Positions 19,909-20,049 of a DNA stretch of 39,439 bases are shown here, piece after piece. The number at the start of each line of letters is the position of its first letter. Within the stretch, counting starts at the first letter, position 1. Source of the stretch: Thermoproteota archaeon (GTDB lineage Archaea; Asgardarchaeota; Njordarchaeia; Njordarchaeales; Panguiarchaeaceae). Position numbers and translations under genes: made by a program. Under the pieces are notes generated by a model. The model searched no databases, was not told the origin of the DNA, and worked only from the letters and a program-made list of their open reading frames with translations. The stretch is taken from positions 1 through 39,439 of the forward strand of contig JANJXX010000008.1 in the NCBI GenBank assembly GCA_024720975.1, given 5' to 3'.

Positions 19909-20049
19909 TTATCCACCTATGTTTACTGATGGACTCCCGCCTCCATTTGAGCATGATTGTATACAGATGCAGCAACAGCAGCAGCAACAACAGCAAGATA
20001 CTGCTGCGAGTGCTATCTCAGTAGTTTCGCTGTATATTTCGATCTCCAT
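19909..20049 (-). CDS. Cys-rich RiPP precursor, copy A (46 aa): MEIEIYSETTEIALAAVSCCCCCCCCCICIQSCSNGGGSPSVNIGG
   Basis: Manual translation, absent from the ORF track; GGGTGAG SD; SagA-like layout; T-tract (TTCCTTTTTTCTC) downstream on the minus strand. Confidence 0.92.
   Translation of the reverse strand: MEIEIYSETTEIALAAVSCCCCCCCCCICIQSCSNGGGSPSVNIGG

Follow-up and report, generated by a model that had tools for sequence, protein, structure and literature searches.

Two short, cysteine-rich genes lie head-to-head in this archaeal contig, with 504 nt between their open reading frames (ORFs). They are probably twin, paralogous, SagA-like precursors of a single azole-peptide (TOMM) gene cluster: near-redundant congeners, generated by inverted duplication of a module and kept alike by gene conversion. 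The main effect of having both would be an increased dosage of precursor with some minor product diversity, rather than a two-component toxin. The stretch of DNA analyzed (the window) is the entire 39.4-kb contig (39,439 nt) of an archaeal MAG that amounts to 1.36 Mb in 29 contigs (81% complete, 40% G+C), and whose rRNA genes score best with archaeal models. The features that matter to the argument are listed in Table 1.

(Two observations on the host genome: another part of it, locus 1-3016 of a genome contig, holds the 3' end of a 23S rRNA gene (+ strand), a tRNA gene and a 16S rRNA gene (- strand); the rRNA genes are convergent, so this genome has no standard 16S-23S operon. Within the window, the best matches of an M18 aminopeptidase gene (12599-13987), in species-representative genomes, are all bacterial (Clostridia/Bacillota; at most 51% identity), and the gene may, on the strength of these matches, have been acquired from bacteria.)

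Table 1. Positions in the window of the precursor genes, the inverted repeat and the neighbouring genes
Feature	Positions	Strand	Remarks
E1-like/SagC-like protein	16994-18052	-	ThiF 28.1 bits (exactly the cut-off); TIGR03603 E 4.5e-10
Membrane protein	18058-18882	-	Downstream of copy A
ABC ATPase	18892-19677	-	Pfam ABC_tran 64.5 bits
Promoter-like element	19720-19746	-	TCTTATATTCTTATTTACTATTTTTAA; upstream of the ABC ATPase gene
B-type tail remnant	19783-19771	-	GGCTACTAGACAC, compared with GGCGTCTAGACAC of copy B; now untranslated
A-side-only segment	19784-19923	-	140 nt; last four codons of copy A, stop, T6 tract
Precursor copy A	19909-20049	-	ORF call; 46 aa: 18-aa leader, core with 9 contiguous Cys, ICIQSC, SNGGGSPSV, tail NIGG
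Arm A	19924-20131	-	TATA-like box, 5' UTR, ribosome-binding site, codons 1-42 of copy A
Spacer	20132-20471		AT-rich, unique, between the two divergent promoters
Arm B	20472-20676	+	TATA-like box, 5' UTR, ribosome-binding site, codons 1-41 of copy B
Precursor copy B	20554-20685	+	ORF call; 43 aa: leader of copy A except for A17, core with 9 Cys, ICITC, SNGGGSPSV, tail GV
Matching promoter-like element	20718-20744	+	Upstream of the SagB-type dehydrogenase gene, right after the T6 tract
SagB-type FMN dehydrogenase	20768-21544	+	TIGR03605 101.3 bits, cut-off 78.4
CPBP/CAAX-type protease	21548-22420	+	PF02517 33.9 bits, cut-off 22.4
Divergent YcaO	22524-23942	-	PF02624 53.3 bits
Second SagC-like protein	24064-25059	+	TIGR03603 31.7 bits
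YcaO/SagD-type cyclodehydratase	25071-26531	+	PF02624 156.5 bits, cut-off 25.7
Second SagB-like protein	27389-28222		TIGR03605 84.8 bits

The peptides encoded by copies A and B are 91% identical. In each, the 18-residue leader reads MEIEIYSETTEIALAA, then V (copy A) or A (copy B), then S, the 16 residues ahead of position 17 being identical; after the nine Cys both continue with I-C-I and, further on, with C-S-N-G-G-G-S-P-S-V. A preliminary description of this DNA had claimed a common leader and a 9-Cys run with the same order of TGC and TGT codons, and this is borne out by comparing the ORFs; the differences that it listed (AAVS/AAAS, CIQSC/CITC and VNIGG/VGV) are all correct in the alignment. 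At the level of DNA, codon 17, two residues ahead of the first Cys, is GTA (Val) in copy A and GCA (Ala) in copy B; the core block is CAATCA (Gln-Ser) in copy A vs ACG (Thr) in copy B, that is, 6 vs 3 nt, in frame; and the C-terminal tails are NIGG-stop and GV-stop. Both genes start with ATG, and an in-frame TAG abuts each start codon, so the leader cannot extend further. A GGTGA ribosome-binding site, 5 nt 5' of each ATG, matches the anti-Shine-Dalgarno sequence ATCACCTCC at the 3' end of the same genome's 16S rRNA. [quoted passage not shown] The whole MAG contains these two copies and no third, and the cluster has no further small ORF rich in Cys, Ser and Thr. (The RNA of 5' UTR plus ORF is not more stably folded than its shuffled counterparts; z = 0.47.)

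The company kept by these genes fits the definition of an azole-peptide (TOMM) cluster, here one that resembles streptolysin S clusters: a YcaO-type D protein, a SagB-type FMN dehydrogenase and, adjacent to it, a short Cys/Ser/Thr-rich precursor with a leader. The genes past copy A (16994-19677, - strand) form a tightly packed operon with gaps of only 9 and 5 nt; downstream of copy B, the SagB-type dehydrogenase and the CPBP protease constitute a second operon (20768-22420, + strand). Among the relatives of the dehydrogenase in the PDB are two azoline oxidases, CyaGox and BmdC; for the YcaO, searching the PDB by sequence returned zero matches. A radical SAM/SPASM enzyme is also part of the cluster. 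The whole would be streptolysin-S-like in its workings, yet it falls short of the curated family profiles: the YcaO/SagD-type protein scores 199.2 bits with TIGR03604, just under the cut-off (219.25); TIGR03602, the streptolysin S family, gives copy B 20.7 bits (E 2.9e-4) and copy A a weak 10.5 bits (E 0.43), neither of them reaching the cut-off of 35. The SagC-like protein of the exporter operon, a candidate for the leader-binding C component, scores 39.7 bits with TIGR03603 (cut-off 187.65) and 22.2 bits with TIGR03882 (cut-off 36.9). (The stretch 22524-29295 brings together a second YcaO, a SagC-like and a SagB-like protein and the radical SAM/SPASM enzyme, and the only substrates available are the two near-identical precursors.)

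How the cluster would operate can be sketched by analogy with its family: the C protein would bind the leader; the YcaO protein would cyclodehydrate Cys and perhaps Ser and Thr; SagB would oxidize azolines to azoles; and the CPBP protease and the ABC system would provide for leader removal or immunity, and for export. With residue 17 as the sole difference between the leaders, both peptides should follow one pathway and yield two congeners. The predicted products are two polythiazole peptides, which would be set apart by core residues 12-14 (IQSC/ITC), by the residue at position 17 and by their tails (NIGG/GV).

The twin genes are embedded in an inverted repeat of ~196 nt that spans a TATA-like box, the 5' UTR, the ribosome-binding site and most of the ORF. 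The repeat starts at a TATATATCAA box, ~82 nt upstream of each ATG, and arm identity ends past codon 42 of copy A and codon 41 of copy B. Between the TATATATC box and codon 42, the arms are distinguished by the QS/T block and two substitutions, one just past the TATA-like box and one in codon 17: the inner arms (19960-20119/20484-20643; 160 nt) are 99% complementary, and the arms 19924-19953/20647-20676 (30 nt) are 100% complementary. With promoter, UTR, ribosome-binding site and leader so much alike, both genes should be expressed alike. (Run X5, from another study, has T in place of C at window position 20521, in the copy B 5' UTR within the arm, so perfect likeness of the arms at this site does not extend to all populations.)

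The tails of the two peptides differ because the 140-nt segment is present only on the copy A side. That segment has no other copy in the genome, and there is accordingly no sign of a mobile element; it may have been inserted on the A side or lost from the B side. The homology of the two sides resumes beyond it: the remnant of a B-type tail on the A side is colinear, in the alignment, with the promoter-like element that is common to both sides, and the outer block past the ORFs is 69% identical (48/70 columns). The two promoter-like elements conform to the pattern TCTT.T.TTCTTAT.T.CTATTTTTAA. Their local alignment scores 32, compared with 18 +/- 2.7 for shuffled sequences, a score that is attained by 1/2000 shuffles and by 0/612 control stretches of the window. 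Because this outer homology is significant, the duplicated module would extend beyond the ORF, to ~270 nt; as read from the alignment, it would therefore comprise promoter, UTR, precursor gene, T-tract and the promoter-like element of the next operon.

The following history appears probable: a module of ~270 nt was duplicated in inverted orientation, leaving one copy facing the exporter operon and the other facing the dehydrogenase/protease operon; gene conversion between the inverted arms would since have kept promoter and ORF ~99% identical, while the 3' part drifted to 69%. The reason for invoking conversion is a single one: the disparity between inner (~99%) and outer (69%) identity, which speaks for a duplication that is not very recent and for homogenization of the promoter-plus-ORF part. 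An alternative to gene conversion is that the duplication is recent, in which case the likeness of the outer blocks could be that of a regulatory motif common to both promoters.

Might the inverted duplication itself be an artefact, two strain variants of a single gene falsely joined during assembly of an 81% complete MAG in 29 contigs? This is extremely unlikely. Logan contigs, which were built independently of the MAG, were compared with 19300-21300, skipping position 20000 (V17). In X1, one contig covers 19300-19959, and with it the copy A tail, the QS block and the 140-nt segment, with 0 differences; another (20079-20524) contains the spacer and the inner ends of both arms. Two other studies (X5 and X8) yielded copy B together with its flanks: the X5 contig 20245-20949 runs from the spacer through arm B to sagB with one change, at 20521, and the X8 contig 20543-20793 covers copy B and what lies downstream with 0 differences. 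The region is partly covered in X6, where the junction of arm A with the spacer and the copy B tail are recovered. Each junction is thus reproduced by an independent contig. The X1 unitig of the common part (20001-20108) has a depth of 15.8, twice that of its flanks (8-8.8), as expected for two copies; and the arms are flanked by two different, coherent operons of one pathway. The concern, raised in the preliminary description, that the differences between the copies might be errors is lessened for the QS block and the A tail, which an X1 contig reproduces without differences; V17 occupies the skipped position. (Two technical notes: copy A's own letters, QS and tail, are matched only in X1, which may be the sample from which the MAG itself was derived; and the public runs with this locus are all labelled hot-spring metagenomes, none of them recorded as RNA.)

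Long, near-identical arms on either side of an asymmetric spacer also bring to mind a recombination switch, in which exchange between the arms would flip the 340-nt spacer, or shuffle V17/A17 relative to QS/T, and change the regulation of both units. We consider this very improbable: the core promoter lies inside each arm, so it would not shift relative to its gene; the survey of ORFs and Pfam domains turned up no recombinase gene beside the repeat; and the Logan contigs contain no recombinant joints, although a joint would escape notice in contigs that stop within identical arms.

The preliminary description placed copy A at the head of the export operon. The orientation is right, but co-transcription does not follow from it. 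The 231 nt that separate copy A from the ABC ATPase gene hold a T6 tract, 43 nt past the stop codon, and the promoter-like element, 43 nt ahead of the ABC start codon. The copy B side is a compact version of the same design: a T6 tract 35 nt past the stop, then the promoter-like element, then sagB. The likely layout, to judge from these signals, would be a precursor transcript that is short and abundant, some of it reading through, and enzyme and exporter operons on separate promoters. The common promoter-like element suggests that the exporter and sagB operons might be co-regulated, independently of the precursor promoters.

Do the differences between the copies carry meaning? It had been argued that every coding difference changes the protein, and that this points to two congeners or a two-component product. 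The observation carries no statistical weight: the 40 aligned codons contain one nonsynonymous and zero synonymous substitutions, and 79% of random single changes in these codons would be nonsynonymous. All the coding differences come from a single substitution, a single indel block and the boundary of the repeat. The QS/T block (an indel of 3 nt together with two or more substitutions, all within 6 nt) is either a complex mutation or a locally selected change; its occurrence in an otherwise near-identical repeat could, on the face of the alignment, reflect selection for a different core. A hydroxyl residue adjoins the last Cys in both copies (S-C in A, T-C in B), so the heterocyclizable positions in the block are equal in number. 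V17/A17, near the likely leader cleavage site, might affect processing. What survives of the argument is that two congeners follow from the sequences, provided that both are expressed and processed; functional divergence does not follow from coding changes that come down to one substitution, a tail that is a by-product of the 140-nt segment, and a block in which the Ser/Thr-Cys pair is kept.

The suggestion of a two-component product lacks support: the peptides are 91% identical, and their leaders are identical apart from V17/A17. In its strongest form it would hold that the two peptides are functionally distinct partners, forming a two-component or synergistic azole peptide, their differences maintained by selection as conversion homogenizes the rest. 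All three differences do alter the peptide, the changes cluster at one core position within a near-identical repeat, and, with C, D and B-like enzymes present in duplicate, a division of labour is conceivable. Nevertheless, we regard this as improbable: enzymes cannot discriminate between the copies by leaders that are alike apart from residue 17, and a common leader makes it hard to envisage a two-component system in which each peptide has dedicated enzymes; selection leaves no statistical signal; the tail difference is accounted for by the 140-nt indel; S-C and T-C present equal counts of heterocyclizable residues; and in the known twin system of the streptolysin S (SLS) type either copy works alone. 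That congeners should be held functionally apart by selection, at the core, the tail and residue 17, in spite of gene conversion, is likewise a poor bet. Were it true, the two polythiazole peptides of the cluster would have separate targets, be processed differently or act in combination: the first two-peptide linear azole system, and in an archaeon. We know of no two-component linear azole peptide that has been described. The peptides of two-peptide RiPPs such as lacticin 3147 and thuricin CD are strongly different, are often served by dedicated enzymes, and are both needed for full activity. The archaeal cluster resembles these systems in having two precursor genes; by the standard of clearly different peptides, a pair that is 91% identical, with leaders alike except at residue 17, falls outside the class.

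A case can also be made for treating one of the twins, most likely copy A, as a passenger or decaying duplicate: the duplication of the promoter module would be what mattered, and the A peptide would be poorly processed or not used at all. The tail of copy A has been replaced by the extra 140-nt segment, its TIGR03602 score is half that of copy B (10.5 vs 20.7 bits), and copy B alone is traversed contiguously, through its whole arm, by the X5 contig. Set against this, the frame, start codon, ribosome-binding site and leader of copy A are intact, its core indel is in frame, and only an outgroup could orient the 140-nt event. X5 contigs do not cover 19733-20244, and this gap is not read as absence of copy A. 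On balance, a passenger role for copy A is unlikely.

Near-redundant twins have precedents. Beta-haemolytic Streptococcus anginosus has two slightly different precursor genes, sagA1 and sagA2, in one SLS-type cluster, and either gene alone restores haemolysis (Tabata et al. 2013, as summarised in PMC9643698). As far as that summary goes, a single SagBCD-type enzyme set, a CAAX-type protease and an ABC exporter serve both precursors there, as they would here; the twin genes of S. anginosus lie within a single sag operon, whereas the archaeal twins are divergent, each in a promoter-containing inverted repeat. The host is also different, an archaeon, and the archaeal system is known from its genes alone. 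In a broader survey, two precursor genes occur in 6/312 cytolysin clusters and in 20/102 faecalisin producers with identified precursors (PMC4603692). Since twin precursors are already documented in streptolysin S and faecalisin clusters, the second copy is not surprising.

The likeness to streptolysin S and cytolysin (sagA-I; Cox et al. 2015, PMC4603692) extends to discrete C and D components of the cyclodehydratase, SagB and a short precursor, to a CaaX-like protease (PF02517) and an ABC transporter in the cluster, and to a heterocyclizable run right behind the leader (S18 plus C19-C27, 10 residues). The criterion for a cytolysin core is a Gly followed by at least 10 contiguous heterocyclizable residues (Cox 2015); the ten-residue run of the archaeal precursors is preceded by A/V17, not Gly. 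Recognition of the streptolysin S precursor by SagC is conferred by the leader (PMC2676033). The FXXXB motif that SagC uses is absent from the 18 residues of the archaeal leader, which lack both Phe and any F-x-x-x-branched pattern; they do contain a T-E-I motif that lines up with the TQV site of SagA. Further differences from streptolysin S are the lack of Gly ahead of the run, a leader of just 18 aa, precursors under the TIGR03602 cut-off, and the extra YcaO, C, SagB-like and radical SAM genes.

Faecalisins share with the archaeal pair a Cys-repeat core and, in those 20/102 producers, two near-identical precursor products, but the copies in faecalisin producers vary chiefly in how long a Gly linker precedes the Cys repeat, and the archaeal copies have no Gly linker and differ past the Cys run. 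Faecalisin clusters come from Enterococcus, with a D protein akin to that of microcin B17 (PMC4603692). (Outside this genome, a DNA scan for nine Cys codons (C9) brought up one real-looking precursor-like ORF, in Shouchella oshimensis DSM 18940, NZ_KV917380.1, ~3406-3432, - strand, in which nine Cys come after ten Gly; Cox et al. ascribe just such a layout, a Gly linker and a Cys repeat, to faecalisins.)

Relatives of the cluster are scarce. A search with the precursor among 5.8 billion proteins gave no usable relative, and a profile of both precursors had 0 matches among 1.84 billion cluster representatives. No real relative of the precursor emerged from scanning genome, metagenome and viral collections for the DNA patterns C9, C6-ICI, MEI...C7 and EIALAAxSC4, whose matches were otherwise trinucleotide repeats in other frames. 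(One candidate precursor from these scans, L300, was dropped as it overlaps a longer ORF.) Searching genome contigs with SagB, and metagenome contigs with a SagB alignment, likewise provided no usable relative. Among 60 related genomes, the best matches to SagB reach only 34% identity; four genomes of the same genus yielded, with this query, no credible SagB homologue and a single marginal match to a nitroreductase domain (E 7.9e-4, 28% over 83 residues). The only other homologues among the 5.8 billion proteins are a SagB that is 79% identical (P0002) and a YcaO that is 64% identical (P0008), both on one Logan contig of 11,134 nt; P0002 starts at query residue 97, so the contig probably breaks off within sagB, in which case it would not reach the precursors. 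The identical SagB is carried by 12 contigs. In sum, protein, profile and DNA-pattern searches found no relative that carries a precursor.

What, then, is one to make of this locus? Twin precursors are an arrangement of a known kind, here set neatly head-to-head and in an unusual host. The second precursor is less of a rarity, and of less interest, than the entire cluster. Natural-product clusters of archaea have been little studied, and this one is very rare. Its expression would supply two substrates with a common 5' region, and nine contiguous Cys would give an unusually long stretch of polythiazole. One can think of the locus as a compact inverted duplication in which the part that contains the promoter and the gene would stay identical while the 3' part decays.
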